Virus record (IMG/VR): IMGVR_UViG_3300034198_017033
Span: 32,445-96,444 of that record
Origin: a virus
Direction: 5' to 3' (one strand)
DNA length: 64,000 bases
In this document: positions 2,732 to 33,646 of the stretch, piece by piece
Layout: every line of letters starts with the position of its first letter
Position numbering within the stretch: position 1 is the first letter of the stretch
Program-made: the position numbers and the translations under genes
Notes under the pieces: generated by a model
Told to the model about the DNA's origin: nothing
Database searches by the model: none
Seen by the model: the letters and a program-made list of their open reading frames with translations, nothing else

Positions 2732-3233
2732 TTAAATCATGTAAGTATTCAGAGTGTTCTATGTTTTTTTCGTTAGCATAACCAATACTCATGTGCATTC
2801 CAAAGAATGGTTTCCCTAAACCCAATTCAGTTCTTATGGATTGTAATGATTCTCTCTCTTCATGAGGAACGTTAAACCACCATGTTCTACCATCAGTCCT
2901 AGGGTCCAAATCAATAACGATAGGTATAGTTTTACCATGCCATTTTTGTTTTGTTATATCCCACGCATTTAGAGCCTCTTCAACGGACTTTTGTCCATTC
3001 TGGGTTAAATCCCTCATGCTGTCGTTAATAAACGAAATATGAGCCCCTCTAAGCGGTTTATTTAGTGTTAGATTGTATCTTCTTTTTATGAACCAATTGT
3101 AGTATTCGCATATCTCTCCATCTACCATAACCATGGCTATTTTTTTCCATGACGCTTGATTTAAGTGTTTTTTTGTTTTGTCCTCAGGTTCAAACTCAAT
3201 CTTACCTGTAAGGTGTAATATTTTGGTTTCCAT
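2712..3233 (-). CDS. hypothetical protein
   Basis: 173-aa ORF with no recognisable motif. Confidence 0.45.
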   Translation of the reverse strand: METKILHLTGKIEFEPEDKTKKHLNQASWKKIAMVMVDGEICEYYNWFIKRRYNLTLNKPLRGAHISFINDSMRDLTQNGQKSVEEALNAWDITKQKWHGKTIPIVIDLDPRTDGRTWWFNVPHEERESLQSIRTELGLGKPFFGMHMSIGYANEKNIEHSEYLHDLIKKGYI

Positions 3234-3660
3234 TTATTGTTATTAAATCAGTAATAATCTCTCTATCAATTTCGTTTCCATTTATAGCTATTAAATCGTT
3301 AATAATCTCTCTATCAATTTCGTTTGAAATTTCTTGTGATAACATATTAATTAGTTCAGCCTCAGCATCTATATGATGAAAAGCATGCAAGTCATCAGAC
3401 ATTTCAACAGTCCAAAATGGTTTTTTATACGCTGAACCAAACTCTTTTTTTTGCAACCCATTTGAAAACGACCATTTTCTAAATATTTTTTCACATTCTA
3501 AAATATCAAAATCAAAAACAACATGACATTCTATAACGATGTCTTGACCATATTCTAACTGAGTTGTGTTAACATGATAAAATTTGTTATTACAAACTAC
3601 ATAATGTTTATTTAAATATTTGTCTAGTATTTTTTTAATCTCAATGGGTTTCATACACAA
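3202..3660 (-). CDS. hypothetical protein with an internal tandem repeat
   Basis: ORF. About 39 nt are directly repeated at 3240-3320 (peptide repeat EIDREIINDLIAINGN / EIDREIITDLITINGN). Confidence 0.4.
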   Translation of the reverse strand: MCMKPIEIKKILDKYLNKHYVVCNNKFYHVNTTQLEYGQDIVIECHVVFDFDILECEKIFRKWSFSNGLQKKEFGSAYKKPFWTVEMSDDLHAFHHIDAEAELINMLSQEISNEIDREIINDLIAINGNEIDREIITDLITINGNQNITPYR

Positions 3661-3691: not shown

Positions 3692-4450
3692 TTAAGCCAA
3701 CCTAAGTGGTTTTAAAAACTCTCTCAAGAAAGCGTTTTTAGGACCTCCAATCTTTTCAACCCATTTTTGGTAGTTGGATTCATTTCTTTCTTCCAATTCA
3801 AGTTGAGCTTTTTTGGACGGCTTACGAGTACCATAAGGTAACTTTTCTTCTTGGAACTCTGGGTAAAGTTCTCTATTGAAAACTCTCTCGTCAACCAAGA
3901 ACACAACTGCTGTTAACTGGTCCCCTAAGTCTGGTTCATGGAAAACAGCTGTAGCGACACCATTATCAGTAAGTGTTCTTAAATGTTGGTTAAGACTTCC
4001 TAACTTATCTGGTGTATTGTTAGTAGTACCACCATTAAGGATAATAAAAGTTTTATCTTCTTTGGCCCATTTATTATAAATCTTCTCTAAATTAGATAGA
4101 CCTTTAACTGTTTGACCGTACTCAACCACAGCATGACCAAATTGGATACCTTGTTGAATTGGACTTATATTGTAAGGAACCAGACCATACATTCTGTATT
4201 CCAAATACATTTCAGTTTTTCTTGGCATCGAGTTAGCTTTTACCTTGCATTGTGACAACGCTTCAAGGAATTCACCTTTAGGCATTGTAGGAAACATAAA
4301 ATAATGCATCTCCTTTGAACCGAACCACTCTAGTGGCCATTCGTTTAGGTCTAAGACCCTTATGTTAAGTTCTAAACACCATTGATAAGGTGTTTTAAAT
4401 TCTAATTCTTCCATTAGTGTTCCATTTGTATTAAGTGAGAAATTGTACAT
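3692..4450 (-). CDS. PTH2-like (peptidyl-tRNA hydrolase 2 family) domain protein with an N-terminal extension
   Basis: GIQFGHAVV resembles the PTH2 AAQCSHAAV motif. HEPDLGDQLTAVVF resembles the PTH2 DAGRTQIAPGTVT region. Paralog of 30435-30785. Confidence 0.4.
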   Translation of the reverse strand: MYNFSLNTNGTLMEELEFKTPYQWCLELNIRVLDLNEWPLEWFGSKEMHYFMFPTMPKGEFLEALSQCKVKANSMPRKTEMYLEYRMYGLVPYNISPIQQGIQFGHAVVEYGQTVKGLSNLEKIYNKWAKEDKTFIILNGGTTNNTPDKLGSLNQHLRTLTDNGVATAVFHEPDLGDQLTAVVFLVDERVFNRELYPEFQEEKLPYGTRKPSKKAQLELEERNESNYQKWVEKIGGPKNAFLREFLKPLRLA

Positions 4451-5703
4451 TGTACTGGATTGTAGATAATGAACTCGTCATTTCTAAGGTCAGCACCACC
4501 ATGAGCGTATACGCTATCAAAACCATCCTTTTGGATGTTAGAGTAACTCAAACTATAACATGATGAATCATGTTTGTGAATGTGTTTCTCGTTTCCTAAA
4601 TGTACATCGAACAATGCCAAGAAACCTACTTGAGAGTTACCTCTAGTCCAATGTGAACCTGATAGTGAACTATACCCCAATGATTTTTGACTCTTGTTAG
4701 CGAAATACACACCATCACCGAACATAGAACCAGTGTAAACAGCACCAGAAGGTCTAATCATAAGACCAGTCTGGATAATGTTAAACCAGTTCTCGTTTCG
4801 AGAACCATGCCAGTAAAGTCTTTTCTTTTTAACTTTAGCTGTTTTAAAATGGTTATCAAATTTGGCTTGTGTGGCAATATTAACAACTTTGAAAATCTTT
4901 TTGGCTTTTGACGAATTATCACCCAATAATTTGGTGATAAGGCTAAGTGTTTCGCTATCTTTCTCAACTTCAATCTTAAGACCCATTTGAGTAAGGATGT
5001 CAATATCTGACATTTCTTCACCAGTGGTTTCAATAGTTTGTTTTTGTTGTTTGATAAGTTTAACCTGACCAGCCATGGTATCCAGCGCACTTTGTTCTTC
5101 ACCCAACAATCTTTGAGCTTTTTCCAATTCGTCATCGTTATCAAGACCTTGAACCAAGTGATTTTTAACGTTATCCATTTTTCTAGGAATAACGGTAAAA
5201 AGTCTTAACAATTCGTTGTTCACTTCTTTAAGGTCACCACCAACTTTAAGCATAGCTGTAACTTTAGACAAAACCTCTTGTGCTGCTTCAACTTGTTGTT
5301 CAGAAACAGCGTCTTGAGTAACTTTATAATTCTTTTGAATAGATTTATTTGCGTATGCCATAAGGTCTTGAACTAATTTCTTAACCATAGCATCTTTTAT
5401 CGCTTCAACAGTGTTGTTTTGTGAACCACCGTTTGAATTATCAACTACTGGTTCTGCTAATAACTCTGTTACATCAGTGTAACCTTTACTAGCACCAGTC
5501 TTTTGTTTGTAAACACTACTCCATTTAGAACTATCTTTATACTCAGTAGTGAGACTTTTACCAACTCTACCGTATTCACATTTGATTCTACCGTCAGCAA
5601 GCTCTTCCATTATATAGACTTTGTTGCTATTATCTGTTTTTCCGTTATCAACCGATACGTGAATTAATTTAGCGTATTTTAAGCCGTTTTCTTTAGTTAT
5701 CAT
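4414..5703 (-). CDS. poly(ADP-ribose) polymerase-like protein (WGR domain plus PARP catalytic domain)
   Basis: WGR motif IKCEYGRVGKS. Catalytic signature LYWHGSRNENWFNIIQTGL...GDGVYFA (H-G-S), and NDEFIIYNP supplies the Y and E of the H-Y-E triad. Confidence 0.75.
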   Translation of the reverse strand: MITKENGLKYAKLIHVSVDNGKTDNSNKVYIMEELADGRIKCEYGRVGKSLTTEYKDSSKWSSVYKQKTGASKGYTDVTELLAEPVVDNSNGGSQNNTVEAIKDAMVKKLVQDLMAYANKSIQKNYKVTQDAVSEQQVEAAQEVLSKVTAMLKVGGDLKEVNNELLRLFTVIPRKMDNVKNHLVQGLDNDDELEKAQRLLGEEQSALDTMAGQVKLIKQQKQTIETTGEEMSDIDILTQMGLKIEVEKDSETLSLITKLLGDNSSKAKKIFKVVNIATQAKFDNHFKTAKVKKKRLYWHGSRNENWFNIIQTGLMIRPSGAVYTGSMFGDGVYFANKSQKSLGYSSLSGSHWTRGNSQVGFLALFDVHLGNEKHIHKHDSSCYSLSYSNIQKDGFDSVYAHGGADLRNDEFIIYNPVQCTISHLIQMEH

Positions 5704-7836: not shown

Positions 7837-8889
7837 TTACACCAACTTAAAGAACATATCTCTAACCTTAGAAGAGATGTATTTGTTCACATCTTTTGGT
7901 TCGATTTTGTTATCAGTCATGGTGTCCATTTCCTCTTTGATTACGTCGTTTACAACCCAACGAATTACATCACCCAATTTTTTGTTTTCAATTGGTTCTT
8001 CGTTAGGGAATACATTTTCAAGTGCTTGATTGAAACGACTTTCAGTTACTGCGTATTCAACAAAGCTTTGGATTGATTCCAATTTTTCAGTGTCTACAGC
8101 TGCAAGTGTTTTAACCTTTGAACTAGAGTGGCGTTCGCCCTTCACCTTGAAGCGGTGTACGTTTCCGTTAAGCGTTGTTGACCAAACAATACCTTCACCG
8201 ATTCCAGAGAACCCAAAAGCCTTAGCAACTGGACATTCTTCTTCAACAGCTAGTGTAAGTTCTGACAATTTGTTTTGAACCAATTGTGGCATGTTAAAGT
8301 CAATATCGATTTCCCAAGTTTGGAAATCTTCGATATTGTAAATGTTATCCTCAGGACTTTTCAAAAAGTGTGAAGGAATCCAATAAGCTGGTTTTTGTCT
8401 AGCTTCTTCTTCAGTTTCAGTAATCGGAGTTACTTTAACACCAAAGATAAAGAATGATTTTGGTAGATTTGAAATACCAACACCCTTCTGAATGTTACCA
8501 CCAGCCCATTCACCATAAATCGTAACGATGTTATGACGGACATCAAACATCCCCAACGAATCAATTTGACTAGCAAATTTTTTAAACGCTTCTTTATGTG
8601 ATTCAACAAAGAAAGCAAAACCAGCATTGTCTTTTTCTGGTGTGATAATGTTTTCACGAGATTGTACCCAATACTCACTAGTGTTATCATAACCGTATTT
8701 GAAAGAAACACCAGCATTGGTTCCGTGAAGTTTCACAGTGCCCTTGAAGGTAAGCGTTGGTTTTGGTTTTGTGGTGTCGTAAATCGCATCACCATTCTCA
8801 TCAAGACCAACAAAATTATATTTTCTAAGAACAGTAGCTACAACGCTTCTGAATTGTTCGATAGACGGAAATTTAATCATTTTTTTCAT
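7837..8889 (-). CDS. RNA ligase 2 (T4 Rnl2-like)
   Basis: Motif I VKLHGTN (compare T4 Rnl2 KIHGTN). IYGEWAGGNIQKGV matches Rnl2 FGEFAGPGIQKNV. EGIVW is motif IV. Confidence 0.75.
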   Translation of the reverse strand: MKKMIKFPSIEQFRSVVATVLRKYNFVGLDENGDAIYDTTKPKPTLTFKGTVKLHGTNAGVSFKYGYDNTSEYWVQSRENIITPEKDNAGFAFFVESHKEAFKKFASQIDSLGMFDVRHNIVTIYGEWAGGNIQKGVGISNLPKSFFIFGVKVTPITETEEEARQKPAYWIPSHFLKSPEDNIYNIEDFQTWEIDIDFNMPQLVQNKLSELTLAVEEECPVAKAFGFSGIGEGIVWSTTLNGNVHRFKVKGERHSSSKVKTLAAVDTEKLESIQSFVEYAVTESRFNQALENVFPNEEPIENKKLGDVIRWVVNDVIKEEMDTMTDNKIEPKDVNKYISSKVRDMFFKLV

Positions 8890-11303: not shown

Positions 11304-11807
11304 TTAATCCTCCAAACTTTTTCCCAATAATTTTTCTAAGTGTTCCCACATTGGTTTGGCAGCGATTGGTGTGTTTAAGTACAAAGCACCTTTGAACTCC
11401 GCGTATTCCTTGGCATACATGTCAATTTTACCACCATGTTCAATGTTTGCGATTCTATCAGCCAACTTAAGAATAATTGCATCTGGATTGCTAGCAGTTT
11501 TAGGTAAAGTTTTCTCTTTTTTCTCTTTTCTGTTTCTCCCAAGCTCATCAGTAACACAGAAAACCATTTCAGCAACTTCAATACCGAAGTGTTTCTTTAT
11601 GTCGTTGTAGCTTATACCATCGTCCTCGATTGCATCATGCAACCAAGATGCCACGATGTATTTCCCAGAGTATCCAAATCTTTTGATTACATCCACAACG
11701 TCTTGTAAGTGTTTGTGGTATGGGAATATTTCATCATAGGATTGGTTGCTATGCGCTTTTATAGCAACCAATTTTGCTTCTTCGTAAGTTTTGTCTGTAT
11801 AAGTCAT
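11304..11807 (-). CDS. HD-domain (p)ppGpp hydrolase (SpoT/Mesh1-like small alarmone hydrolase)
   Basis: ASWLHDAIEDDG resembles the RelA/SpoT HD motif LHDVIEDT. ILKLADRIANIE resembles LADRLHNM. Confidence 0.6.
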   Translation of the reverse strand: MTYTDKTYEEAKLVAIKAHSNQSYDEIFPYHKHLQDVVDVIKRFGYSGKYIVASWLHDAIEDDGISYNDIKKHFGIEVAEMVFCVTDELGRNRKEKKEKTLPKTASNPDAIILKLADRIANIEHGGKIDMYAKEYAEFKGALYLNTPIAAKPMWEHLEKLLGKSLED

Positions 11808-12331: not shown

Positions 12332-12973
12332 TTAAATGTTATCTTTATTTGTTTTTAATATAAACCTACCTTTATCGTTTCTAACGCTTTTAAGGCAGTT
12401 TCTATAATCTTGTTTTACTGTTTTTAAATCTTTATTTCTTCTATCACCATTTACTATTTTAGATATTGTTTGATGTGCAACACCGTACATTTCCCCAATT
12501 TGTACTTGAGTGTAGTTTTTGGTTTTATATAATTCTCTAATTTCTTCTACCTCTGAATCTTTTAGTTTAAAGGAAGGGTTTTTTTCACCATATTGGTCTA
12601 TCACGTTACCGAGAACTTCTCTAGAATGCTTGGATTGTTCTTTATATGTTGCTAGTTCTAAATTTGATAATTTGTTATTAGTTTTATCACCATCTTTATG
12701 GTTTATTGTTAAACCATCGTTTATATCACCGTTAAAATATTGCCAAACTAATCTATGTGCAAAACTACTATATCTTTTTCCATTAACAGAACCTCTTATA
12801 CTTAAATAACCTTCCTTGGTCTTTCTCTCAATTCTGTATGGTTCTACTTCATAAAACCCAGCACCAACCCTTTTAATTTTAGACCATATTTCACCACTAT
12901 CATTAATAGTCCATTCACCAGAATTAACGTATTCTATTAATAAACGTTCATTTAGTTTATGATTTTTTGCCAT
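12332..12973 (-). CDS. HNH homing endonuclease with a C-terminal HTH
   Basis: HRLVWQ...NHKDGDKTNNKLSNLE is the HNH_3 pattern. The C-terminal stretch QIGEMYGVAHQTISKIV resembles a helix-turn-helix. Confidence 0.65.
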   Translation of the reverse strand: MAKNHKLNERLLIEYVNSGEWTINDSGEIWSKIKRVGAGFYEVEPYRIERKTKEGYLSIRGSVNGKRYSSFAHRLVWQYFNGDINDGLTINHKDGDKTNNKLSNLELATYKEQSKHSREVLGNVIDQYGEKNPSFKLKDSEVEEIRELYKTKNYTQVQIGEMYGVAHQTISKIVNGDRRNKDLKTVKQDYRNCLKSVRNDKGRFILKTNKDNI

Positions 12974-13011: not shown

Positions 13012-14136
13012 TTAGAGCATTTTGTATAATAATTTGTCATCGTAGTTTACAATGAAGTCTTCTACGGAACCAACTTTACCATCAACCAATCCGAAATACA
13101 ATCCAGTGAATTGTTTTAAGTCGTGTTTACCACAAACTTCAAATACAGCCGCAGCGTATCTTTTCTTTTCTTCTTTGGTTATGTTTTTTGGTTTACGAGC
13201 ACTTAACTCAACCCAAACATCATTTAACTTGTCAGTTAATTTATCGTAGTTATCTTTAAGTCTAAGCAATTCATCTTTTCTTTCTGGGAAAGTTGAAGCG
13301 AATTCTTCTATCTCGTTAGATTTAACGATAGTTATGATGTTGTGTTCAGCTGTTTTACCTTTCAAGTGGTGAACCGCAACGTAAGCTGGGTTTTTTATCT
13401 TGATACGGTTAAAATTAGCGTCTACAACAACGTAACCTTCTTCTGACCATGGCATACCTTCAAATGTACGTAACAAAGTACCCACATCTTTAGCATTCAA
13501 GTCAAATCTTTTAACCAATGGTACTCTTAACGATTCTGCAATCATAGTTAAGTTTTTCCAAGAAACCTCTTGTAATGTAACACGGTTTCTAACAGTCAAC
13601 AAAGTTGCTGATGATTCTCCGTGTGGTTTTACAACAATATTATATGGAGTTGTTAACTCAAACACATATACATGGTTTTTGTCGAACATACATGTATTCA
13701 ACGCATATTGTTTTGTTACAGTGTCCCAAAACAATGAGTTAAAAGTAGTTCCCATTTTGTTGTTAACTTCACCCTCACCCTCAGCTGTACCAGTAGTACC
13801 AGCATACCATTCTTCGTTTACCCAGTCCCAATACACTTGTATAAGAGTACCGTCAAGTTTCTCTAAAACGTGAGCTGTGTTCCAATCTATTTTAGCAGCG
13901 TTTCCTTCTTCAGCATTGAAGAATTTTGTGAAAGCCAACGACATAACATCCCATGTACCTTTTTCAAGGATAAGACCTCTACATTCTTGAACTTCTATGT
14001 TCGACATAATAGTTGGTGACACTAATTGGTCATATTTCAATAACACTTTGTGTTCGTATTCACGAGTTTTTAATTGAAACTCTTTAACAGCTTTTTCAAA
14101 ACCGTTTTCTTTTATAAATTTTTGTATTTTTAACAT
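13012..14136 (-). CDS. RNA ligase 1 (T4 RnlA-like)
   Basis: ECRGLILE matches T4 Rnl1 ECRGIMFE. Nucleotidyl-transferase motif I is EKLDGTLIQVY. EGYVVVDANFNRIKIK matches Rnl1 EGYVAVMKDGSHFKIK. Confidence 0.75.
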   Translation of the reverse strand: MLKIQKFIKENGFEKAVKEFQLKTREYEHKVLLKYDQLVSPTIMSNIEVQECRGLILEKGTWDVMSLAFTKFFNAEEGNAAKIDWNTAHVLEKLDGTLIQVYWDWVNEEWYAGTTGTAEGEGEVNNKMGTTFNSLFWDTVTKQYALNTCMFDKNHVYVFELTTPYNIVVKPHGESSATLLTVRNRVTLQEVSWKNLTMIAESLRVPLVKRFDLNAKDVGTLLRTFEGMPWSEEGYVVVDANFNRIKIKNPAYVAVHHLKGKTAEHNIITIVKSNEIEEFASTFPERKDELLRLKDNYDKLTDKLNDVWVELSARKPKNITKEEKKRYAAAVFEVCGKHDLKQFTGLYFGLVDGKVGSVEDFIVNYDDKLLYKML

Positions 14137-14149
14137 AACATGTATTTTT

Positions 14150-14165
14150 TGTGCAAATATATGTG
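14150..14165 (-). promoter_or_regulatory. -7 promoter element (tgtgcaaatatatgtg) for the Rnl1 gene
   Basis: Consensus motif upstream of the ATG at 14136. Confidence 0.5.
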
Positions 14166-14196
14166 TTTATTTTAATGCACAAAATATTTGCGTTAA

Positions 14197-14583
14197 TTAA
14201 TCATTATCATCGTCATCATCTTGGTCAAAATTGATTTCATCCTCATCATCCAATTTACCTCTCTTAGCATCATCAATTAAACCATCAATCCCATCTAAGA
14301 TGTTTTCATAAGTGTCAGCTTCAGCTTTTCTTCTGATAGCCATAATTTCAGGGTCATTGTTTTCTTCTAAAGATTCAACCAATTTTTTTGCTGAATACAT
14401 AGAAACCAATTCACCAAATTTTGTGACATCTTCATCATCAAAACAAATCCCACCTAAAAAGATTATCATACTACCCAACTGAGCGATAATTAAATCATTG
14501 GATTCTCTACCCTCTTCAACTAGAGCTTTACCCATCTGTACAAATTTTGACGTTAGTTGAAGACGTCTTTCAGCATTTTTCAT
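14197..14583 (-). CDS. hypothetical protein with a strongly acidic C-terminal tail
   Basis: Start MKNAERRL sits just downstream of the promoter motif at 14593-14608. The tail is DDEDEINFDQDDDDDND. Confidence 0.5.
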   Translation of the reverse strand: MKNAERRLQLTSKFVQMGKALVEEGRESNDLIIAQLGSMIIFLGGICFDDEDVTKFGELVSMYSAKKLVESLEENNDPEIMAIRRKAEADTYENILDGIDGLIDDAKRGKLDDEDEINFDQDDDDDND

Positions 14584-14592
14584 ATTTATAAG

Positions 14593-14608
14593 TTTTTGCA
14601 AATATACT
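14593..14608 (-). promoter_or_regulatory. -7 promoter element (ttgcaaatatactaat)
   Basis: Consensus motif 15 nt upstream of the ATG at 14583. Confidence 0.55.
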
Positions 14609-14629
14609 AATTAATTTCTATTGTTACAA

Positions 14630-15268
14630 CTATTTTGTATAATAATGATGTGGTAATTGAACACCAACCCCATATTTTTTACCAATAGCTTCCAAACCAA
14701 TTATAAAGTCATTGTCAAAATCCCACAAAAATTCATCGTAATCTATATCAAAATAAACAACATAAGAAGTTTTACCAGTAAAACCATACTGTTTATAAAG
14801 ATGGTCAACGTTAAAAGTCATCCCCAACAGCTTATTATTAGCAGCATACTCTTTAACTTCGTTAGTTAAACTATCCAAATCAACATCCAATTGATAATCA
14901 ACACCCAAATCCGTAAGTGATTCAGACACCATTTGATTGTATCTACCGAAGCTTCCGTTAATTAGAACTTCCATAGCCACCCATTTAACTACATGTGGTT
15001 CGTTATGGTTTATTTCACCAGAATACTTAGCCAAATAAGTGTAACCCATGTTACCATTTTTATGGATAGCAAAAACTAATTGTAAATTAAAAATATCCAA
15101 ACCAGTTTCTTCTTTACATTCTCTTATTGCCGTTGTTGTAGGGTCATTGTCGTCTTCTGGGTCCATCTTACCTCCAGGTAATCCGAAATCAGAATGGTTG
15201 TCTTTTCTAGACACTCCAAGAATTAAACCTTCTTCGTTAATTAATACTACTTGCGCTGTTATCATAAT
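14630..15268 (-). CDS. NUDIX hydrolase
   Basis: Nudix box GGKMDPEDDNDPTTTAIRECKEETGL. Start MITAQVV sits just downstream of the promoter motif at 15277-15290. Confidence 0.7.
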   Translation of the reverse strand: MMITAQVVLINEEGLILGVSRKDNHSDFGLPGGKMDPEDDNDPTTTAIRECKEETGLDIFNLQLVFAIHKNGNMGYTYLAKYSGEINHNEPHVVKWVAMEVLINGSFGRYNQMVSESLTDLGVDYQLDVDLDSLTNEVKEYAANNKLLGMTFNVDHLYKQYGFTGKTSYVVYFDIDYDEFLWDFDNDFIIGLEAIGKKYGVGVQLPHHYYTK

Positions 15269-15312
15269 ATATTTTTTACAAAGATACAACATATTTTTAT
15301 TATATGCAAATA

Positions 15313-15337
15313 AAAAAGGGTCTTTACGACCCTTTCT
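15313..15337 (-). terminator. hairpin terminator (gggtc tttac gaccc) overlapping the stop of 15324-16262
   Basis: Stem-loop flanked by A and T runs. Confidence 0.45.
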
Positions 15338-16262
15338 TAATTTCAGTAACTCTACCCTTAATGGCAAAGTTCTTTATTTTTTGCCATTTGGTGATATCAT
15401 TCGACATCACTGGTTTTCCACCATCTGGGTTTATCGCAATTGTTATATGTGGAATCGCATTGGTTGATGGATAACCTTCAACCCTAACAGCCATAGCCAT
15501 ATCGCTAATCCCTATAGCTTCAACATACAAAGTAACTTCTTTACCTAAATCTTCTTGGTTTGGTACTGGTTTACCAAACACTATAGTCATGTGGTGCGCA
15601 ATTACTTTCCAACCATCAGGTATCATACCCTCAATTCTTGACAACAAAGCTGCTCTAGACCCACCATCCAATACAACAGCAGAATACAAAATGTTTGATT
15701 CTTTGTACATGTCTTTCGATTCTAAAACGCTTTTAAGCGTTAATGGACCTTGACCCTTGTGTGATTCAATCATTGATTGTATTTTTTCAAGCGGTACACC
15801 ATGAGTGTTTCTTTCAGCTAATTGCTCAGCTGTAAGACCAGCTGTACCTATATCCACAAACTTTATGTTGTTGTCAGCCAACCCCATTTCCAAAGCAGCC
15901 TTAATAGCGGCCTTTGATTCGTTTTGTTTGATGTTTGTGTTATCTAGGATAACTGGTGAAACACCTTCTTTTAACGAACCAACAACGTTTTTTAAATTGG
16001 TAGAGTGAGCTCTTGACAATGGTGTAAAGTCTTTAGATTCAAACATTAATTGAAAGAATTTGTTGTAATCACCTTGTGACTCTATAACAGCATCAGTTGA
16101 ATGGATTACTCCTTCACCTACTAGTTCTTTGGCTTTTGTTGATTTACCCGAGCCTGGTATACCACGCATCACGATAAGCACTTGGTCTGGTCTTGAAACC
16201 GCAACCCCTAATGAATTCTTTAACATACCTTCTCTTAATATTGTTCTTATTTCTTTTTTCAT
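15324..16262 (-). CDS. polynucleotide 5'-kinase fused to a 2H (LigT/CPDase-like) phosphoesterase domain
   Basis: P-loop VMRGIPGSGKST as in the T4 Pnk kinase domain. The C-terminal half carries two H-x-T-x motifs (HMTIVF and HITIAI) typical of the 2H superfamily. N-terminal motif MKKEIRTILREG. Confidence 0.7.
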   Translation of the reverse strand: MKKEIRTILREGMLKNSLGVAVSRPDQVLIVMRGIPGSGKSTKAKELVGEGVIHSTDAVIESQGDYNKFFQLMFESKDFTPLSRAHSTNLKNVVGSLKEGVSPVILDNTNIKQNESKAAIKAALEMGLADNNIKFVDIGTAGLTAEQLAERNTHGVPLEKIQSMIESHKGQGPLTLKSVLESKDMYKESNILYSAVVLDGGSRAALLSRIEGMIPDGWKVIAHHMTIVFGKPVPNQEDLGKEVTLYVEAIGISDMAMAVRVEGYPSTNAIPHITIAINPDGGKPVMSNDITKWQKIKNFAIKGRVTEIKKGS

Positions 16263-16300: not shown

Positions 16301-16978
16301 TTATTTATAATAGTCTTGCCAAACATCATTATTTAATCCGTAATCAATCATAACAATCGTGTCTTCACCATTTCTTTTTACAAGACCATATGTGTTAAGT
16401 TTACACAAATCACCAACTGGAATATCATAACCACCAATAAAACTTAACATTTCATAAGTAAATTCATCTTCCCACATAGCTTCATAAACTTCTTTGCTTA
16501 CATCAGAACTAAACCATGAACCTCTTTTTGGGTTTATTTCATCATGATGTTTTCTAAGGCCAGCACAATAATCAGCAAATGTAAAACCAACAACTCTTTC
16601 AAATATTGCTGGCGTTACTTTTTTAGCCAACTCCATTTCAACCCATAAATTATTTTGGTCATAAGCAAATACTTGTGCTGTGATGTCTTTTAAATCATAG
16701 TAATTTGAATAATCAATTTCAATTTCGTTTTGTGCAAGACCCTTTTTATTTCTCGCAATCTTAAGCACTTTAGTATCGTCAACCATATAGACAATCCTAG
16801 ATGAGCCAGATGATATTCTTTTAAGTCTTTCTTGACAGTATTGGATTCTTTTGTTAAAACTATTTAATTTTGAAAATTCTTCTAAATCAAAATTGGATGG
16901 GTAATCCTCTTCTAAATAAGATTCGATTACCTCATGTACTAAATTCTCTGATAATTTTTGTTTAATAAAATCTTTCAT
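16301..16978 (-). CDS. hypothetical protein with the shared N-terminal motif
   Basis: 225-aa ORF beginning MKDFIKQKLSENL. Confidence 0.5.
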   Translation of the reverse strand: MKDFIKQKLSENLVHEVIESYLEEDYPSNFDLEEFSKLNSFNKRIQYCQERLKRISSGSSRIVYMVDDTKVLKIARNKKGLAQNEIEIDYSNYYDLKDITAQVFAYDQNNLWVEMELAKKVTPAIFERVVGFTFADYCAGLRKHHDEINPKRGSWFSSDVSKEVYEAMWEDEFTYEMLSFIGGYDIPVGDLCKLNTYGLVKRNGEDTIVMIDYGLNNDVWQDYYK

Positions 16979-16980
16979 AT

Positions 16981-17775
16981 TTACACTTGTTTTCTATATT
17001 GAACGTAATTTCTTAAAACCCATACAACTACATTGTCAAAATCATCGTTCTCATATAAGATACGACCACTCTTTGTGCTATAAACCGCCCAATCAGCATT
17101 CTCACCTCTTATTATTGGTATTATGTTTCTAGCTGTATTACCATAAAAAATAACTTGTGGTTCCTCATCACTATAATGCCATAATTCTATACCAGATGCT
17201 CTAAATATAACAGCTTCTTTACCATATTTAAAACCAGAACCACGATTGCTATGTGCATATCTATCATATCTCTCAATATCATAAGCAAAATTATAACCAC
17301 CATATTTTTTTTCGAACTCTCCCAAATGTGTTGTTAACGCCAATTTATCAATTTCATCAACACCATATTTAAAACCTTGTCTTGCAATACTCTCAGCATT
17401 ATCAGTGAAATGAATTAACCATTGATTCTTAACAAGTCTTGGGTTATCAAAATAGGCCCATGCTGGATAATCAGAGTCTGGAACGTTTAGTGTGTTTTGT
17501 TCAATTTCTCTAAATAACCATTCAGCAAATCTATTGTATAATTCTGGGTTTTTATCAAATAGAATATCTGATATTTCATATGTTTCACCCTCAATATCTG
17601 TTTCTATACCTTCTTCATCTAAGAACCTATCAAATTCATATGGATATTCATGTGGTAAATAAGACTTCTTTTGTTCATCTGACATAGAAAAATATCTCTT
17701 AAGAGATACCATGTCTTGATTGATATACTCTTTTAAAATATTTTCTCTAAGCAAATTTTTAATATATTTTTTCAT
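16981..17775 (-). CDS. hypothetical protein with the shared N-terminal motif
   Basis: Start taken at MKKYIKNLLREN (ATG at 17775). The longer ORF-track version would overlap tRNA-Ser. Confidence 0.5.
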   Translation of the reverse strand: MKKYIKNLLRENILKEYINQDMVSLKRYFSMSDEQKKSYLPHEYPYEFDRFLDEEGIETDIEGETYEISDILFDKNPELYNRFAEWLFREIEQNTLNVPDSDYPAWAYFDNPRLVKNQWLIHFTDNAESIARQGFKYGVDEIDKLALTTHLGEFEKKYGGYNFAYDIERYDRYAHSNRGSGFKYGKEAVIFRASGIELWHYSDEEPQVIFYGNTARNIIPIIRGENADWAVYSTKSGRILYENDDFDNVVVWVLRNYVQYRKQV

Positions 17776-17819: not shown

Positions 17820-17906
17820 TGGTGGAGAGTATGGGATTCGAACCCATGGGCCGAACTAACGACCACGGATTAGCAATCCGCTCCATTACCACTCTGGCAA
17901 CTCTCC
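17820..17906 (-). tRNA. tRNA-Ser (anticodon GCT), class II, CCA encoded
   Basis: Acceptor GGAGAGT/ACTCTCC. Anticodon loop TTGCTAA. T-arm GGTTCGAATCC. Long variable arm. Confidence 0.8.
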
Positions 17907-18110
17907 ATAAATAAAATAACAATCCCGCCCTTGGGTCGTGACGGGCTACAAAGGGATTAGTGGAATTCCGTGTGTAAGTCACCACTGTACCAGTCCGTAT
18001 CTACCTTGAATTTAATCAGTCACTGTTGGGAGGCTACCCCTATCAACACACCTAGTTTCTTTTCAGGAATATCTTGAAGGTGAAACAAACCTTGATTGCT
18101 ATTTTATTTG

Positions 18111-18183
18111 TACCCCCACAGGGATTCGAACCCCGATTGGACATCTTAGAAGGATGTTGCATTTCCATTTATGCTATGGAGGC
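18111..18183 (-). tRNA. tRNA-Arg (anticodon TCT)
   Basis: Acceptor GCCTCCA/TGGGGGT. Anticodon stem ACATC/GATGT with loop CTTCTAA. T-loop TTCGAAT. Confidence 0.7.
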
Positions 18184-18232
18184 ATATTGTTAGCCAAATG
18201 ATACATATAAATTATAGATTTGACTGATGTTG

Positions 18233-18305
18233 TGACTCTAACAGGATTCGAACCTGTATTTTCGATTTCGTAGACCGAGGTCCTATCCAGTTGAACGATA
18301 GAGCC
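18233..18305 (-). tRNA. tRNA-Arg (anticodon ACG)
   Basis: Acceptor GGCTCTA/TAGAGTC. Anticodon stem TCGGT/ATCGA with loop CTACGAA. T-arm ACAGG-TTCGAAT-CCTGT. Confidence 0.75.
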
Positions 18306-18310
18306 AATTT

Positions 18311-18383
18311 TGGTACCGAGTATCGGAGTCGAACCGACTTGACCATCTTTATGAGGGATGGCTCTTTTCCTATAAGCCTCGGC
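18311..18383 (-). tRNA. tRNA, probably anticodon CAT (Met/Ile2 type), CCA encoded; the fold is imperfect
   Basis: T-arm GTCGG-TTCGACT-CCGAT. The anticodon region CATCC-CTCATAA-AGATG has a C-A mismatch at the loop-closing pair. Confidence 0.5.
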
Positions 18384-18650
18384 ATTTGTGAATGTGGTAG
18401 GGTATTCTCCTACAATTGTGGTGGTTAACTAGTCCCATGCTCCACGCCAGTTTTTCGTCTGGTGCTGTTGTAGTTTATCAGCATTAACACATTCTTATTT
18501 TTTTGTTCTTTTCAATTTGTGCTTTGATTCTAGCAATCTTTTCTGGACTTGGATTTCGGTCTACCGTATAAGATACACCCATTTTATCCAAGTAATCATA
18601 AAGACGCTGCATATCAGCTTCACTTGTCTTTTCCATCTTCTTTTATTTTG

Positions 18651-18724
18651 CGGGGCCGATGGGATTCGAACCCATGTAAAAGGATTAACAGTCCTCCGTA
18701 TTAGACCGCTGCTACGACAGCCCC
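18651..18724 (-). tRNA. tRNA-Asn (anticodon GTT)
   Basis: Acceptor GGGGCTG/CGGCCCC. Discriminator G. Anticodon stem-loop GAGGA-CTGTTAA-TCCTT. Confidence 0.75.
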
Positions 18725-19266
18725 TTGTTATTTCTTTCTTCTTCGTGTACTTCTCTGTGACAATTAGCACAAACTAAAATACATTTATCTAATTCTTTTT
18801 TTATTTTTTCCCAAGATGTACAATGACCTTTTCTGCTTATTAAAAAATCTTTTTCATTTGGGTCCATATGGTGAAACTCTAAAGCACCTATGTATTTATT
18901 ATAACCACATCTCTGACATGAACCGCCTTTGTATTCAACTGCCATCTCTTTGACTTTTTGTCTTCTTTTTACAACGGCTTTAACAGCTTTTTCTTTCCTC
19001 TCTTCTTCGCTTAAATAGACTCTTTTATTTTCAGTATATTTAGTTACAGTTGAAGCTCCAATCCCGAAATGTTTAGCTGTTTCAGCTTTACTATGAGTTA
19101 AATAATACTCATTAATTTTAGAAATTAAACTGTCAGTTATAACCTTACCACCTAAACCATTATTGTTAATGTGATATGATACGGTGCTTTTAGCACAACC
19201 CAATTCTTTAACAATTTCATCAATTTTTAAACCTTTTTTTCTTAATTCTAATATTTTTTCTTTCAT
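18712..19266 (-). CDS. HNH endonuclease with an N-terminal HTH (homing-endonuclease-like), inserted in the tRNA array
   Basis: HNH motif CQRCGY...EFHHMDP...LVCANCHREVH. N-terminal HTH IDEIVKELGCAKSTVSYHI. Confidence 0.6.
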   Translation of the reverse strand: MKEKILELRKKGLKIDEIVKELGCAKSTVSYHINNNGLGGKVITDSLISKINEYYLTHSKAETAKHFGIGASTVTKYTENKRVYLSEEERKEKAVKAVVKRRQKVKEMAVEYKGGSCQRCGYNKYIGALEFHHMDPNEKDFLISRKGHCTSWEKIKKELDKCILVCANCHREVHEEERNNKGLS

Positions 19267-19333
19267 AATTTGTTTTTATTATAAATATAATAAATTCGAA
19301 CAAAAAGTCAATAGATTAACAAAAAAATTTTCG

Positions 19334-19419
19334 CTCTGGCTGTAGGATTCGAACCTACGTTGAGGGTGTACCCTAGCAGATTAACAGTCTGCTGCCATCG
19401 TCCACTCGGCCAAACCAGA
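19334..19419 (-). tRNA. class-II-like tRNA (long variable arm), anticodon GTT, discriminator G
   Basis: Acceptor TCTGGTT/AGCCAGA. D-arm GCC-GAGTGGACGAT-GGC. Anticodon arm GCAGA-CTGTTAA-TCTGC is one base from the E. coli tRNA-Tyr arm GCAGACTGTAAATCTGC. Variable hairpin GGGTACACCC. T-arm GTAGG-TTCGAAT-CCTAC. Confidence 0.5.
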
Positions 19420-19525
19420 ATTTTATATTTTTATCAATACACCGAGTACCACAATTACGGTGCGCCTCTGGTCCATTCGCCAGCGTTGCTGTTTTTACCC
19501 GTGGTTACACCATTTGATAGGGTGT

Positions 19526-19598
19526 GGTCCCCTCGGGACTCGAACCCGAAACCGTCGCGTTATGAGCGCGCTGCGCTAACCAATTGCGCCAGAGGACC
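19526..19598 (-). tRNA. tRNA-Met/Ile2 (anticodon CAT)
   Basis: Acceptor GGTCCTC/GGGGACC. D-arm GCGC-AATTGGTTA-GCGC. Anticodon loop CTCATAA. T-arm TCGGG-TTCGAGT-CCCGA. Confidence 0.7.
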
Positions 19599-19832
19599 TT
19601 ATTTACGTTTTTCAACAATATACTTGATGTAATCTTCGTATCCATCATCATCGTCTTCATCTTCATTTTCTTCTGGTTCAAAGTCTTCATCTAACATTTC
19701 GTCCAGAATTTTAAAAGCAATTTTCATTATTTCTTGTTCTTTACCCTTCAATTGTGGGTTAGGAAGCAAAATGAACAATCCAACTATGGCTTCTACCAAT
19801 CCTTTTTCATTTTCACTATATTGTCTTTTCAT
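19599..19832 (-). CDS. small protein with an acidic C-terminal tail
   Basis: Start MKRQYSENEKG (ATG at 19832), wedged between two tRNAs. The tail is EENEDEDDDDGYEDY. Confidence 0.4.
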   Translation of the reverse strand: MKRQYSENEKGLVEAIVGLFILLPNPQLKGKEQEIMKIAFKILDEMLDEDFEPEENEDEDDDDGYEDYIKYIVEKRK

Positions 19833-19834
19833 AG

Positions 19835-19918
19835 TTGTGACGGTGGGACTCGAACCCACATTGTGTTATAAACACCCAGCGTATCAGGCTGGTGACTAAA
19901 CCATTCATCCACATCACA
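19835..19918 (-). tRNA. class-II-like tRNA-like gene, anticodon GAT; the D-arm is poorly formed
   Basis: Acceptor TGTGATG/CGTCACA. Anticodon arm CCAGC-CTGATAC-GCTGG. Extra hairpin GTGTT-TAT-AACAC. T-arm GTGGG-TTCGAGT-CCCAC. Confidence 0.4.
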
Positions 19919-19924
19919 GTTTGT

Positions 19925-19995
19925 AGGCATGTCGAGACTCGAACTCGAAATACAAAAGTATCAGTCTTGCGTGATAACCAATTTCACCACACGCC
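19925..19995 (-). tRNA. tRNA-Ile (anticodon GAT)
   Basis: Acceptor GGCGTGT/ACATGCC. D-arm GTGA-AATTGGTTA-TCAC. Anticodon stem-loop CAAGA-CTGATAC-TTTTG. T-arm TCGAG-TTCGAGT-CTCGA. Confidence 0.7.
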
Positions 19996-20005
19996 TATGT
20001 TTTAG

Positions 20006-20077
20006 CACTACGCTCAGGACTCGAACCTGAAACCTTGGTTTTGGAGACCAAGATGATAGCCATTTCACCAGCGAAGT
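20006..20077 (-). tRNA. tRNA-Trp (anticodon CCA)
   Basis: Anticodon stem-loop TTGGT-CTCCAAA-ACCAA. T-arm TCAGG-TTCGAGT-CCTGA. The D-stem pairs U11 with A24. Confidence 0.7.
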
Positions 20078-20084
20078 ATAAAAG

Positions 20085-20157
20085 GGTGACTAAGGAGAAT
20101 CGAACTCCCATTTCCAGAACCACAATCTAGCGTGTTAACCGTTACACTATAGCCACC
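20085..20157 (-). tRNA. tRNA-His (anticodon GTG) with G-1
   Basis: Extra 5' G opposite discriminator C. Acceptor GTGGCTA/TAGTCAC. Anticodon stem-loop CTAGA-TTGTGGT-TCTGG. Confidence 0.8.
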
Positions 20158-20171
20158 ATGTTTAATTTACA

Positions 20172-20196
20172 ATCACCGCATTTTTGCGGTGATTAT
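20172..20196. repeat. perfect palindrome aatcaccgcatttttgcggtgatt
   Basis: A 9-bp stem with a 5-nt loop. Related tgcggtga and tcaccgca copies lie at 20219-20230 and 20684-20695, flanking the nuclease gene. Confidence 0.5.
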
Positions 20197-20210
20197 CTTT
20201 TCTATTCGCC

Positions 20211-20645
20211 TTATTTTTGCGGTGAATATTTTTCAATGTAATTTATTAAATTTTTTAGGTAATTAACATCTTCTTTTACGTTACCCAATAATTTATTACA
20301 TTTATCACATAAAATATCTCTAACAACACCAGTCAAATGACAATGGTCTACGTGTGTTTTTTTATCATTTTTTAAAACATCACTACAGATAGAACATTTA
20401 TGTTCTTGTTTATCTAATTTTAATAAATATTCTTCTTTAGTAAGACCATAATTTCTTAAAATTGAATTATACTTTATTTTTTCTTTTTGAATAGGGTCTT
20501 GATATCTAACCTTATTCCTATTATTTTCACATTCTTTACAATAATGATTTAAACCATCTTTATTATAATTTTTTACACCAAATAAATCAATACTTTTTTC
20601 TTCTTGACATTTGGAACACCTTTTAACGTTTATATTTATTTCCAT
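20211..20645 (-). CDS. endonuclease VII-like (T4 gp49 family) HNH/zinc-finger nuclease
   Basis: HVDHCHLTGVVRDILCDKCNKLLGN resembles the T4 endo VII core HLDHDHELNG...RGLLCNLCN. An N-terminal Cys pair is also present. Confidence 0.6.
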   Translation of the reverse strand: MEININVKRCSKCQEEKSIDLFGVKNYNKDGLNHYCKECENNRNKVRYQDPIQKEKIKYNSILRNYGLTKEEYLLKLDKQEHKCSICSDVLKNDKKTHVDHCHLTGVVRDILCDKCNKLLGNVKEDVNYLKNLINYIEKYSPQK

Positions 20646-20715
20646 ACTAATAAATATATTACATTTTGTAAAAGTGCGGATAATTTTTACTATTCACCGC
20701 ATGTGTAAATTTTTG

Positions 20716-20803
20716 CGGAGGAGACAGGACTCGAACCTGCAACCCACTTTCGCGAGACTAGTTTTCAAGACTAGAGCGGTCAACCATTACGCTTTACTCC
20801 TCC
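20716..20803 (-). tRNA. tRNA-Ser (anticodon TGA), class II
   Basis: Acceptor GGAGGAG/CTCCTCC. Anticodon stem-loop CTAGT-CTTGAAA-ACTAG. Long variable arm. T-arm CAGG-TTCGAGT-CCTG. Confidence 0.8.
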
Positions 20804-25176: not shown

Positions 25177-26349
25177 TTATTTTAATAATTTTTCAAAGTT
25201 AGCTGTTTCCATTTTTTGGATGGCTTTTCCCAACTCAGGACTTGGTTTCAAATCAAATTTTTCCATAGCCTCTGGTCCGCTAACGCTAAGTCTATATTGT
25301 TCAAAAGCGTTTAACAATTTTTCTGGTATGTTTTCTTTCTCACCAAATTCTCTAATTTGTTTATCAGAAACACCAGCAGTTTGTTGCATTTTTTTCAACA
25401 AGTATGCGGTATCAACACTCAATTTTAAGAATGAAATTAAAAACACAATCGCTTTTATTTCGTCTGCTGAGTATTTCAATTCATTTAATTTTCTTCTTAA
25501 CAAATCAATTTCGTTATCTTTTAATAAACTAGCCAATTCAACAATGTAATTGTCAACTTTACCAGAGTTTCTCATGTATGATTTTTTATTCAATAACATG
25601 TTAGGTAACACCCATTTGAATAAGTCATATTTATCTAACATTTCCATGTATTTTTTAAATGACTTAGCTGAGATTAATCCTTTGATAAACTCATCTCTAA
25701 TACGCTCACCAGAAATACCTTCAAGACTTGCATCTTTTTGTAATGCCATATCTGTTGCTGGGTCTAAATCAGAACCAAATCTACCAGCAAATCTAATCGC
25801 TCTTAGAATTCTAAGCCTATCTTCACCAAATCTATCTTCTGGGGCACCAACAGTTCTCACAACACCGTTTTTAAGGTCGTCTACACCACCTACAAGGTCA
25901 ACTATTTCTTTTGTGTCTATATCATAGAACAAAGCGTTGATTGTAAGGTCACGTCTTTTTACATCACCATCTATATTTGTAAATTCAACACTGTCTGGTC
26001 TTCTACCAGAACCAATATCATTTCGAAACGTAGCTACTTCATATTCTCCTTGGTCAGTGAATACGTTGATAACACCAAAAGCTTTACCAGTTGGTAGGGT
26101 TCTGAACCCAGCATCTTGCATCATTTCTTCTACTTTGTCAGGAACAGCATCTGTAGCTAAATCAAAATCCTTAGGTGTTTTTCCTAATAGGGCATCGCGC
26201 ACAGCTCCACCAACCACATATAATTTATATCCGTTTTTGGTGAACACCTTTTGGATTTCAATTATATCTGATGGTATTTGGAAGTCAAATTTAATTCTTT
26301 CTTCCATTGTAAGTCCTTCTCTAAGTATTTGTTTTATCTGTGTTTTCAT
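25177..26349 (-). CDS. CCA-adding tRNA nucleotidyltransferase (class II)
   Basis: Head-domain motifs GGAVRDALLGKTPKDFDLAT and RRDLTINA. Start MKTQIKQILREGL carries the shared N-terminal motif. The -7 box abuts the ATG. Confidence 0.75.
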   Translation of the reverse strand: MKTQIKQILREGLTMEERIKFDFQIPSDIIEIQKVFTKNGYKLYVVGGAVRDALLGKTPKDFDLATDAVPDKVEEMMQDAGFRTLPTGKAFGVINVFTDQGEYEVATFRNDIGSGRRPDSVEFTNIDGDVKRRDLTINALFYDIDTKEIVDLVGGVDDLKNGVVRTVGAPEDRFGEDRLRILRAIRFAGRFGSDLDPATDMALQKDASLEGISGERIRDEFIKGLISAKSFKKYMEMLDKYDLFKWVLPNMLLNKKSYMRNSGKVDNYIVELASLLKDNEIDLLRRKLNELKYSADEIKAIVFLISFLKLSVDTAYLLKKMQQTAGVSDKQIREFGEKENIPEKLLNAFEQYRLSVSGPEAMEKFDLKPSPELGKAIQKMETANFEKLLK

Positions 26350-30184: not shown

Positions 30185-30442
30185 TTAAGGGTAAATCGTT
30201 GCGACTACCCTATTGTTTATTTTTTCAATTTTCAATTTAGCTTTGAATTTAATAGAACCCTTTGTACTTGGGTTGTCTGGTGTTTCTTTGGTAGTAAAAC
30301 CTACACCAGATTCCATATCTACGTGGTCTACATAATATGTTTCACCCTTGGCTTTGATTACCCACATAGGTATACTAGGGTCTTGTAAAGACATTTTGTT
30401 AAAATGGAAAATGATTTCTGTTCTGGATTGAATATTAAGCAT
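30185..30442 (-). CDS. hypothetical protein
   Basis: 85-aa ORF. Confidence 0.4.
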   Translation of the reverse strand: MLNIQSRTEIIFHFNKMSLQDPSIPMWVIKAKGETYYVDHVDMESGVGFTTKETPDNPSTKGSIKFKAKLKIEKINNRVVATIYP

Positions 30443-30785
30443 ATTGAACCTCCTTTCCTAATAACGGACATGAACTGGTAAGTTTTTTAGCCGCGTCTGT
30501 TGGTTCAAAGGCTACTGCTGTAATCACGTTACCCAAATCTGGTTCACGGAAAATAGTGTGTTTGATACCAATAAAGATAGCTTTGGTAATCAATTTGATT
30601 AACTCTTCTTCATCAGCGACAGTTAATAATGCTAAATAATTTGATTTTGTTTGCCATTGTGATGCCACTTCTGGGTGGTCATGTTGAAAATCAATGGCTG
30701 CGTGTGCCGATTGCACCGCTTGTGTGGAAATTGGTAAGTCACGTCTTGTGACAACTCTTAATTTTTGATTGTTAATCTAAGTCAT
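30435..30785 (-). CDS. PTH2-family peptidyl-tRNA hydrolase homolog; full length only if the in-frame TAG at codon 3 (30777-30779) is read through (otherwise GTG start at 30716)
   Basis: LRVVTRRDLPISTQAVQSAHAAIDF aligns with human PTH2 [42 protein letters not shown] aligns with [20 protein letters not shown]. The frame reads ATG ACT TAG ATT AAC. Confidence 0.45.
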
Positions 30786-30845
30786 TTGTTCTATTTGTTT
30801 TTTGTTTATAAATATATCATTTTTCTAAAAAATGTAAAGTGTTTG

Positions 30846-33496: not shown

Positions 33497-33552
33497 ACAG
33501 AATAGTCTTTTTTGTATCCTAAACATTAAATTGCTGAATCTATTCTTCTAGT

Positions 33553-33638: not shown

Positions 33639-33646
33639 GATGTATT

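Follow-up and report, generated by a model that had tools for sequence, protein, structure and literature searches.

A predicted polynucleotide kinase-2H phosphoesterase fusion encoded with an Rnl1-type RNA ligase in an uncultured large phage

Introduction

To our knowledge, tRNA repair by phages is known almost only from T4, where the end-healing enzyme Pnkp and the RNA ligase Rnl1 produce a clean junction. T4 Pnkp couples its kinase to a DxDxT (HAD) phosphatase, which strips the phosphate completely. Here, we analyze a stretch of 64,000 nucleotides from the IMG/VR virus record IMGVR_UViG_3300034198_017033 (positions 32,445 to 96,444; hereafter the window), where an open reading frame (ORF) on the minus strand (15324-16262) encodes a protein of 312 residues with matches to both PF13671 and PF08302 over their cut-offs. 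Its kinase is homologous to that of T4 Pnkp and, as in T4, would heal RNA ends for an Rnl1-type ligase in a phage and close to tRNA genes. The kinase is followed by a predicted 2H phosphoesterase, which in contrast to the T4 phosphatase is expected to leave a 2'-phosphate. The original prediction for this locus had proposed exactly this arrangement, a T4 Pnk-like kinase fused to a Trl1-type 2H domain in place of the T4 HAD domain, and the domain matches described below support it.

Several other healing enzymes likewise combine a Pnk-type kinase with an interchangeable 3' healing module and are linked to a ligase. Phage RM378 reportedly has a kinase-HD enzyme, and a kinase-phosphatase-ligase is said to occur in baculovirus. 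Runella encodes an HD-Pnk (PMC6097658), and the Pnkp of C. thermocellum is a kinase-metallophosphoesterase-ligase (PMC1920235). Unlike the protein described here, none of them has a 2H domain as its 3' module. The literature thus far covers kinase-HAD, kinase-HD and kinase-metallophosphoesterase healing enzymes as well as stand-alone 2H proteins, and KptA is rare in jumbo phages. A phage kinase-2H fusion was not found described in the literature we searched; an earlier mention of the architecture elsewhere is possible.

The closest described architecture is that of the fungal and plant tRNA ligases Trl1/AtRNL, in which a P-loop 5' kinase precedes a 2H cyclic phosphodiesterase (CPD). A fusion of polynucleotide kinase and CPD is also said to exist in Branchiostoma. 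In Mucorales fungi, the kinase and CPD enzymes are encoded separately (PMC10946426). The Trl1 CPD, CNPase and E. coli ThpR open the cyclic phosphate ring to a 2'-phosphate (PMC4201822, PMC7145591), and the fungal ligase needs this 2'-phosphate, which it recognizes via a His-Arg-Arg triad (PMC11404444).

Results

Kinase and predicted 2H domains of the fusion protein

The N-terminal part of the protein (residues 27-180; 15723-16184, minus strand) comprises a P-loop 5'-OH polynucleotide kinase domain. PF13671 matched residues 29-167 (expect value (E) 2e-9, 38.3 bits against a cut-off of 27), and the PHROG family phrog_505, annotated as polynucleotide kinase, matched with E 1e-10. T4 Pnk was the top sequence match in the PDB, with an alignment spanning the full kinase domain, and a Foldseek search with a model of the full-length protein returned the C. 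thermocellum Pnkp kinase first (4gp6, E 2e-5). The P-loop reads GIPGSGKST in translation (16137-16163, minus strand). In a HMMER alignment to T4 Pnk, K40, S41, D57, D107 and R151 correspond to T4 K15, S16, D35, D85 and R126, which, together with R38, we take to be the essential catalytic residues of the T4 enzyme. Among relatives down to 32% identity, K40, D107 and R151 do not vary, and at least 90% have the Asp of position 57. One such protein encoded outside the window (P0172; 32% identity) reads GANPTEKY at the P-loop and has lost the catalytic Asp; as it has kept both HxT motifs of the second domain, the 2H half can evidently persist without an active kinase.

The C-terminal domain (residues 188-310; 15333-15701, minus strand) is, judged by its sequence and predicted structure, a 2H phosphoesterase of the CNPase/Trl1 CPD kind pared down to about 125 residues, with a predicted activity to match. 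This assignment is based on the PF08302 matches, a confident structural model and the positions of accessory residues. The two motifs noticed originally, HMTIVF and HITIAI, are real and occupy residues 224-229 and 272-277. The codons of the first read HMT (H224-M-T226; 15585-15593, minus strand) and those of the second read HIT (H272-I-T274; 15441-15449, minus strand), each at the start of a modelled β-strand formed by the same residues, with an invariant N268 ahead of the second. Since H224, T226, H272 and T274 are invariant across 32 orthologues, 33 members of the module family and 10 full-length relatives of 32-58% identity, the motifs are not chance occurrences.

Hidden Markov model searches, which matched PF13671 in the kinase, returned PF08302 (tRNA_lig_CPD) for the C-terminal domain as the only Pfam family found there (residues 247-298; E 3.4e-6, 27.2 bits against a cut-off of 23). 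When the members of the module family were scanned singly, all 33 matched PF08302 (E ≤0.01, best 6.9e-7), two matched LigT and none matched Acb1. HAD, calcineurin and HD families gave no match in the 312-residue protein at E up to 0.1. A C-terminal HAD or calcineurin phosphatase, the case named beforehand as incompatible with a 2H domain, was thus not seen, and the domain folds as a 2H protein in the model.

The full-length AlphaFold model had a predicted local distance difference test score (pLDDT) of 87.5 and a predicted template modelling score (pTM) of 0.57. Because each Foldseek match covers a single domain, the template modelling scores of the two-domain model were low. The C-terminal domain was therefore modelled alone (pLDDT 93.6, pTM 0.86). 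It is built in the order strand, helix, strand (HxT), two strands, strand (HxT), helix and long hairpin, so that each HxT motif lies on a β-strand of the central sheet in the model, in strands 2 and 5 as in Trl1. The modelled structure resembles CNPase far more than it does bacterial LigT/ThpR or the viral 2H enzymes. By linear position, without superposition, N268, N288, Y193 and F229 correspond to Asn763, Asn782, Tyr647 and His687 of the Candida enzyme. Neither N288 nor N268, which stands four positions ahead of H272, varies; all 11 aligned sequences have an aromatic residue at Y193, and F229, five residues after H224, is either F or L. The likeness to Trl1 extends over the order of the domains, the PF08302 family and the strands carrying the motifs and, by linear position, also over the Asn that precedes the second His by four residues, the helix Asn and two aromatic positions.

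In comparison with vertebrate CNPase/RICH, the identity is 12-18% and the catalytic domain of CNPase is larger (about 210 residues). The phage protein also differs in that its kinase retains the residues expected for catalytic activity, and its gene lies in an RNA-ligase cassette.

A conserved cassette with an Rnl1-type ligase

The fusion gene belongs to a run of co-oriented minus-strand genes between 12.3 and 16.3 kb, separated by spacers of 38-60 nucleotides. In the order of transcription, it is followed by a NUDIX hydrolase, a protein of 128 residues, an Rnl1-type ligase and an HNH endonuclease. The ligase (374 residues; 13012-14136, minus strand) belongs to the Pfam family of the Trl1 ligase domain, PF09511 (E 3e-16, residues 51-252), and matched phrog_562 over nearly its entire length (E 7e-43, residues 20-358 of 374). 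T4 Rnl1 was its top sequence match in the PDB (2c5u, E 2e-8). K93 in the motif I sequence EKLDG aligns to the Lys of T4 KEDG, and the motif V sequence KIK to T4 KIK.

We searched the proteins of the window against 87 related phage loci with flanks of up to 10 kb. Rnl1 lies downstream of the kinase-2H gene on the same strand in 78 of the 87 loci; of the 81 loci whose sequence continues for 2.5 kb or more past the kinase-2H gene, 78 have it there. The case for a kinase-2H enzyme that heals ends for RNA ligation is built mainly on this linkage. The 128-residue protein (14197-14583, minus strand), which has an acidic tail, was present in 77 of the 87 loci, often directly between the two enzymes. 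Many loci are arranged back to back, with the small-protein gene starting 4-40 nucleotides past the kinase-2H gene and Rnl1 starting within 300-500 nucleotides of it. Based on these counts, kinase-2H, the small protein and Rnl1 form the core of the cassette. Pfam and PHROG gave no match for the small protein, whose conserved core reads R..L..K...MG..L..EG....D......G....D...F.....M..AK; it may act as an adaptor for the repair enzymes or lend them specificity.

The remaining neighbours are less constant: a DNA ligase was found in 58 of the 87 loci, Rnl2 in 43, the CCA-adding enzyme in 42, NUDIX in 38, an HD_4 protein in 35 and a PARP-like protein in 12. The NUDIX hydrolase (211 residues; 14630-15265, minus strand; PF00293, E 2e-12), whose start follows the gene call on identical contigs and replaces a longer ORF with a TTG start, is thus present here as originally described, but it is an optional neighbour and not a constant partner, being missing, for instance, in L006. 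The proposed tandem of Rnl1, NUDIX and kinase genes held for the genes themselves but not for their adjacency, as the previously unlisted small-protein gene lies between NUDIX and Rnl1.

All genes named in the original prediction were recovered by Pfam or PHROG matches, all on the minus strand, including the nearby Rnl2-family RNA ligase (7837-8889; PF09414; phrog_548, E 8e-61), a conserved neighbour, and the CCA-adding enzyme (25177-26349; PF01743, E 2e-37; PF12627; phrog_2244). An array of 11 tRNA genes (17820-20803, minus strand; ARAGORN, and 11 matches to Rfam RF00005) was said to have the cluster directly upstream of it. As the genes and the tRNAs all lie on the minus strand, the repair cluster is instead transcriptionally downstream of the array, and two further minus-strand ORFs (16301-16978 and 16981-17775) intervene. 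Of 21 relatives that were scanned, most have a matching array upstream of their kinase-2H gene. A scan for promoters and terminators between 11000 and 18200 found sites no more frequently than in shuffled sequence and is therefore uninformative on operon structure.

Proposed healing and sealing pathway

Taken together, the domain assignments, the conserved catalytic residues, the modelled fold and the conserved gene order make it likely that the 312-residue protein is a bifunctional RNA end-healing enzyme working with the Rnl1-type ligase, and cut tRNAs are probably mended by a yeast-like rather than a T4 route. The tRNA array and the genes for Rnl2, the CCA-adding enzyme and PTH2 in the vicinity speak for such a role, as do giant polyvalent proteins in which the mini-2H module is fused to CCA-adding enzymes. 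In a first step, the P-loop domain would move a phosphate from a nucleoside triphosphate onto the 5'-OH, with D57 as the putative general base and K40, S41 and R151 holding the phosphates. The HxT histidines of the mini-2H domain would then hydrolyse the cyclic phosphate, giving a 3'-OH,2'-phosphate end by analogy with CNPase, the Trl1 CPD and ThpR. Finally, the ligase, predicted to be co-transcribed, would seal the break, possibly with the small protein encoded in between. In this scheme, we infer which RNA is the substrate, in which direction the ring opens, whether the ligase accepts or needs a 2'-phosphate and what removes this phosphate. Its removal could fall to a host Tpt1/KptA or to an enzyme whose gene lies beyond the window, or it might not be removed at all.

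Several observations weigh against this reading. In the kinase, the counterpart of T4 Arg38 is Ile60, so that five of the six T4 positions are retained and one substrate contact differs. The geometry between the two domains is uncertain in the full-length model, as indicated by its pTM. PF08302 is the sole sequence link to 2H proteins and spans just 52-56 residues around the second motif, and profile searches with the module or the entire protein found no 2H protein among PDB sequences (the matches were weak ones to Pnk, UvrA and an adenylate kinase P-loop, and a spurious one to Myb). V220 takes the place of the Gln that precedes the first His by four residues (Candida Gln678). The domain, with about 125 residues against roughly 200 in the Trl1 CPD, is about half the size of the Trl1 CPD or CNPase, and most of the flanking helices are missing.

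The fate of the 2'-phosphate adds to these points. Unlike in Trl1, the ligase is a separate, T4 Rnl1-like protein of a virus of bacteria, and a check of positions indicates that the fungal His-Arg-Arg triad is missing from it. The fungal His lies nine residues past the motif III Glu, whereas in the phage ligase the ninth residue after FEL is Val and a His stands at +12. After KIK, the phage sequence is NPAYVAVHHLKGK, with no Arg, as in T4 (KIKSDWYVSLHSTK), whereas the fungal ligase has two Arg there. By its sequence, nothing marks the phage ligase as 2'-phosphate-dependent, and with the triad missing a 2'-phosphate end may be a poor substrate for it. A literature search found no statement on T4 Rnl1 sealing 2'-phosphate ends. 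The search for a Tpt1/KptA homologue that had been suggested was run with PF01885 on the approximately 80 ORFs of the window and with phmmer, using E. coli KptA, on the window and the 87 loci, and found none; nor was a Macro or HAD phosphatase found in the window or flanks, which are only part of genomes of 200-370 kb.

Two neighbours were considered as ways to dispose of the phosphate. A role of the HD_4 protein as 2'-phosphatase is unlikely because it resembles small alarmone hydrolases acting on (p)ppGpp/(p)ppApp and not a nucleotidase. The PARP-like neighbour as a substitute for Tpt1 is neither supported nor excluded; it is of the PARP1 type, with a helical regulatory domain.

A shared N-terminal leader

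The kinase-2H protein starts with the sequence MKKEIRTILRE (16230-16262, minus strand), of which M1, K2, I5, I8, L9, R10 and E11 are invariant in 32 orthologues and whose first 10 residues have low pLDDT. A leader of the form MK-x-x-[IF]-[KR]-x-x-L-[RS]-E (MKxxIKxxLRE) opens seven minus-strand proteins of the window: kinase-2H, the two ORFs upstream of it (16946-16978 and 17743-17775), the CCA-adding enzyme (26317-26349; MKTQIKQILRE), its two large neighbour ORFs (28283-28315 and 29478-29510) and an ORF of 57 residues (42973-43005). Compared with these seven proteins, 30 shuffles gave no match, and a single internal match occurred in 18,347 residues. The leader is kept in 40 of 66 distinct orthologues of kinase-2H and in 17 of 39 of the CCA-adding enzyme. 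It was found on no orthologue of Rnl1 (0/62), DNA ligase (0/51), the small protein, NUDIX, HD, Rnl2 or PARP. Stand-alone mini-2H proteins also carry it, joined directly to the module. When the two upstream ORFs were compared with the ART-PolyVal protein that takes their place in L005, nothing was alike except for the common leader.

Internal proteins of T4 bear a 10-residue capsid-targeting sequence that is the only conserved part of these diverse injected defence proteins and is cleaved after (L/I)-x-E (PMC3012670, PMC9026906). The phage leader resembles this sequence with its L-x-E protease site. The same mini-2H and CCA domains occur in polyvalent proteins, for which injection along with the phage DNA has been suggested (PMC7824862). 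On the strength of the likeness to the T4 sequence and of these injected proteins, it is a reasonable idea, by analogy, that the tRNA-repair enzymes may be packaged in the virion.

We also considered a combined scenario, in which a full yeast-type heal-and-seal pathway operates inside bacteria with a 2'-phosphate junction and the leader is a capsid-targeting and cleavage signal that packages the repair enzymes. Taken as a whole, this scenario is doubtful, although we give it some chance. If it were true, the kinase-2H enzyme would leave a 2'-phosphate and the Rnl1-like ligase, perhaps together with the small protein, would seal a 2'-phosphate junction. The mark would shield the mended tRNA from recutting or be removed by host Tpt1/KptA, and in the latter case would be the first natural substrate for bacterial Tpt1. 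The tRNA-repair enzymes would be carried inside the head and then injected along with the phage DNA.

Distribution of the fusion and its modules

Full-length kinase-2H relatives were absent from 50,697 deposited phage genomes, where the kinase half alone occurs in one uncultured phage of 595 kb and the 2H half alone in crAss-like phages. PHROGs likewise places the two halves in separate families, and a megablast search with 20 kb of the window gave no match among deposited phages. A 90%-clustered collection, on the other hand, contained 975 relatives (E ≤0.001), mostly of about 310 residues and on contigs of up to 343 kb, and a scan of IMG/VR confirmed 248, of which we fetched 80 (50-100% identity, contigs of up to 369 kb). 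The description of the fusion as unusual for a phage is accordingly borne out by deposited genomes but not by uncultured large phages.

The modules also occur in other contexts outside the window. In the giant proteins P0193, P0167 and P0151 (1300-2250 residues), mini-2H stands by a CCA-adding enzyme, ART-PolyVal and another 2H domain, which is Acb1/LigT-like. In P0244, a related kinase is found together with a dual-specificity phosphatase, a primase-polymerase and a ligase of the Rnl1 type.

Alternative roles of the 2H module

The alternative that survives best, though we regard it as improbable, is that the 2H module works on tRNA 3' ends, where, together with the CCA-adding enzyme, it would clear the 2',3'-cyclic phosphate that nuclease trimming of the CCA end leaves behind, and that kinase and ligase serve other breaks than these. 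It partly overlaps with the end-healing role preferred here and may coexist with repair in the anticodon loop. The E. coli CCA-adding enzyme reportedly has an HD domain with 2',3'-cyclic phosphodiesterase activity, and a module about 50-55% identical to this one is fused C-terminally to CCA-adding domains in P0193 and P0167. The leader is furthermore common to kinase-2H and the CCA-adding enzyme, and absent from all 62 Rnl1 orthologues. Against this, the module is fused here to a 5' kinase, an activity that is of no use at the 3' end of a tRNA, and the tightest linkage is to Rnl1 (78 of the 87 loci), not to the CCA-adding enzyme (42 of 87, at a distance of 2-9 kb). A 2'-phosphate product might also hinder CCA addition.

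Alternatively, the module could be an immune-evasion nuclease of the Acb1, ns2 or VP3 kind, destroying cyclic-oligonucleotide or 2'-5' signals, with a kinase that is unrelated or regulatory. The Pfam model of Acb1 (PF23474) matched 0 of the 33 module members against 33 of 33 for tRNA_lig_CPD, and the structural score was 12.1 for CNPase against 7.5 for Acb1. Moreover, Acb1 lacks both a kinase fusion and a linkage to RNA ligases, whereas the module is joined to a kinase that has kept its catalytic residues and its synteny with RNA ligases is conserved, which makes this role highly improbable. The weakest proposal, an action on ADP-ribose cyclic phosphate (Appr>p) in a pathway with the PARP-like and NUDIX neighbours, is very improbable, as these genes are the least constant neighbours (38 of 87 loci for NUDIX and 12 of 87 for PARP), no Tpt1 to make Appr>p was found, and the closest structural and sequence relatives act on 2',3'-cyclic phosphates of RNA or nucleotides.

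Neighbouring genes and tRNAs

The HD_4 protein (11304-11807, minus strand; PF13328) matched PDB entry 4yf1 with E 8.5e-13, and its PDB matches comprise Mesh1, small alarmone hydrolases and the hydrolase domains of RelA/SpoT. In 35 of the 87 loci, its gene is kept between those of Rnl1 and the DNA ligase. When toxic RelA-SpoT homologues pyrophosphorylate the CCA ends of tRNAs, small alarmone hydrolases can reverse the modification. By analogy, the HD_4 protein would be another tRNA-repair function if it acts on pyrophosphorylated CCA ends. The PARP1-like protein (4414-5703, minus strand; PF00644, E 3e-25; human PARP1, E 2e-17) comprises a helical regulatory region and a catalytic domain, and relatives keep its gene at the distal end of the same block.

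Endonuclease genes are scattered over the region. The HNH homing endonuclease gene after Rnl1 (12332-12973, minus strand) is a mobile insertion, missing from L002, a contig that is otherwise identical. Within the tRNA array, an HNH gene (18712-19266) and an endonuclease VII gene (20211-20645) lie on the minus strand, and in L006 a GIY-YIG gene (2110-2817) interrupts the gene of the CCA-adding enzyme.

Three tRNAs of the window (19333-19419, 19834-19918 and 33551-33639, minus strand; 85-89 nucleotides) have a long variable arm. tRNAs of this class II shape, 84-91 nucleotides long and with anticodons for Asn (GUU), Ile (GAU) and Met (CAU), and in relatives also for His (GUG), recur across the phage clade, in L005, L011, L015, L030, L034, L043, L048, L073, L078 and L082, in most loci beside tRNAs of normal length with the same anticodon. 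Introns, which would need a splicing ligase, were rejected as an explanation for the 85-89-nucleotide tRNAs, which fold with long variable arms. The tRNAs of this shape might serve as substitutes that resist nucleases, or another amino acid might be loaded onto them. A further tRNA with a CUA anticodon, an amber suppressor labelled Pyl by ARAGORN (30845-30918, minus strand; 2055-2126 in L040), lies near genes for a PTH2 peptidyl-tRNA hydrolase (30435-30716) and an RF-1-domain protein (32749-33150), which together hint at stop-codon or ribosome-rescue functions. Finally, an ORF of 152 residues (3202-3660, minus strand) matched the T4 major capsid family Gp23 over no more than 43 residues (E 7e-12) and may be a capsid gene fragment or a split capsid gene.

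Discussion

The cassette suggests a second route of phage tRNA repair, one that would use the chemistry of fungal and plant tRNA splicing and would be widespread in uncultured large phages. At about 125 residues, against at least 140 for every 2H structure matched in our PDB search, the mini-2H domain may also offer a compact scaffold for studies of 2H catalysis.

Many bacteria have Tpt1/KptA, yet no pathway is known that makes its substrate (PMC6097658). If the product of the kinase-2H enzyme is a 2'-phosphate end, these phages would be a natural source of 2'-phosphate RNA in bacteria, and the Tpt1 question would become testable. The presence of all three predicted Trl1 activities together in phages would, in addition, bear on the origin of the eukaryotic tRNA ligase and of CNPase.

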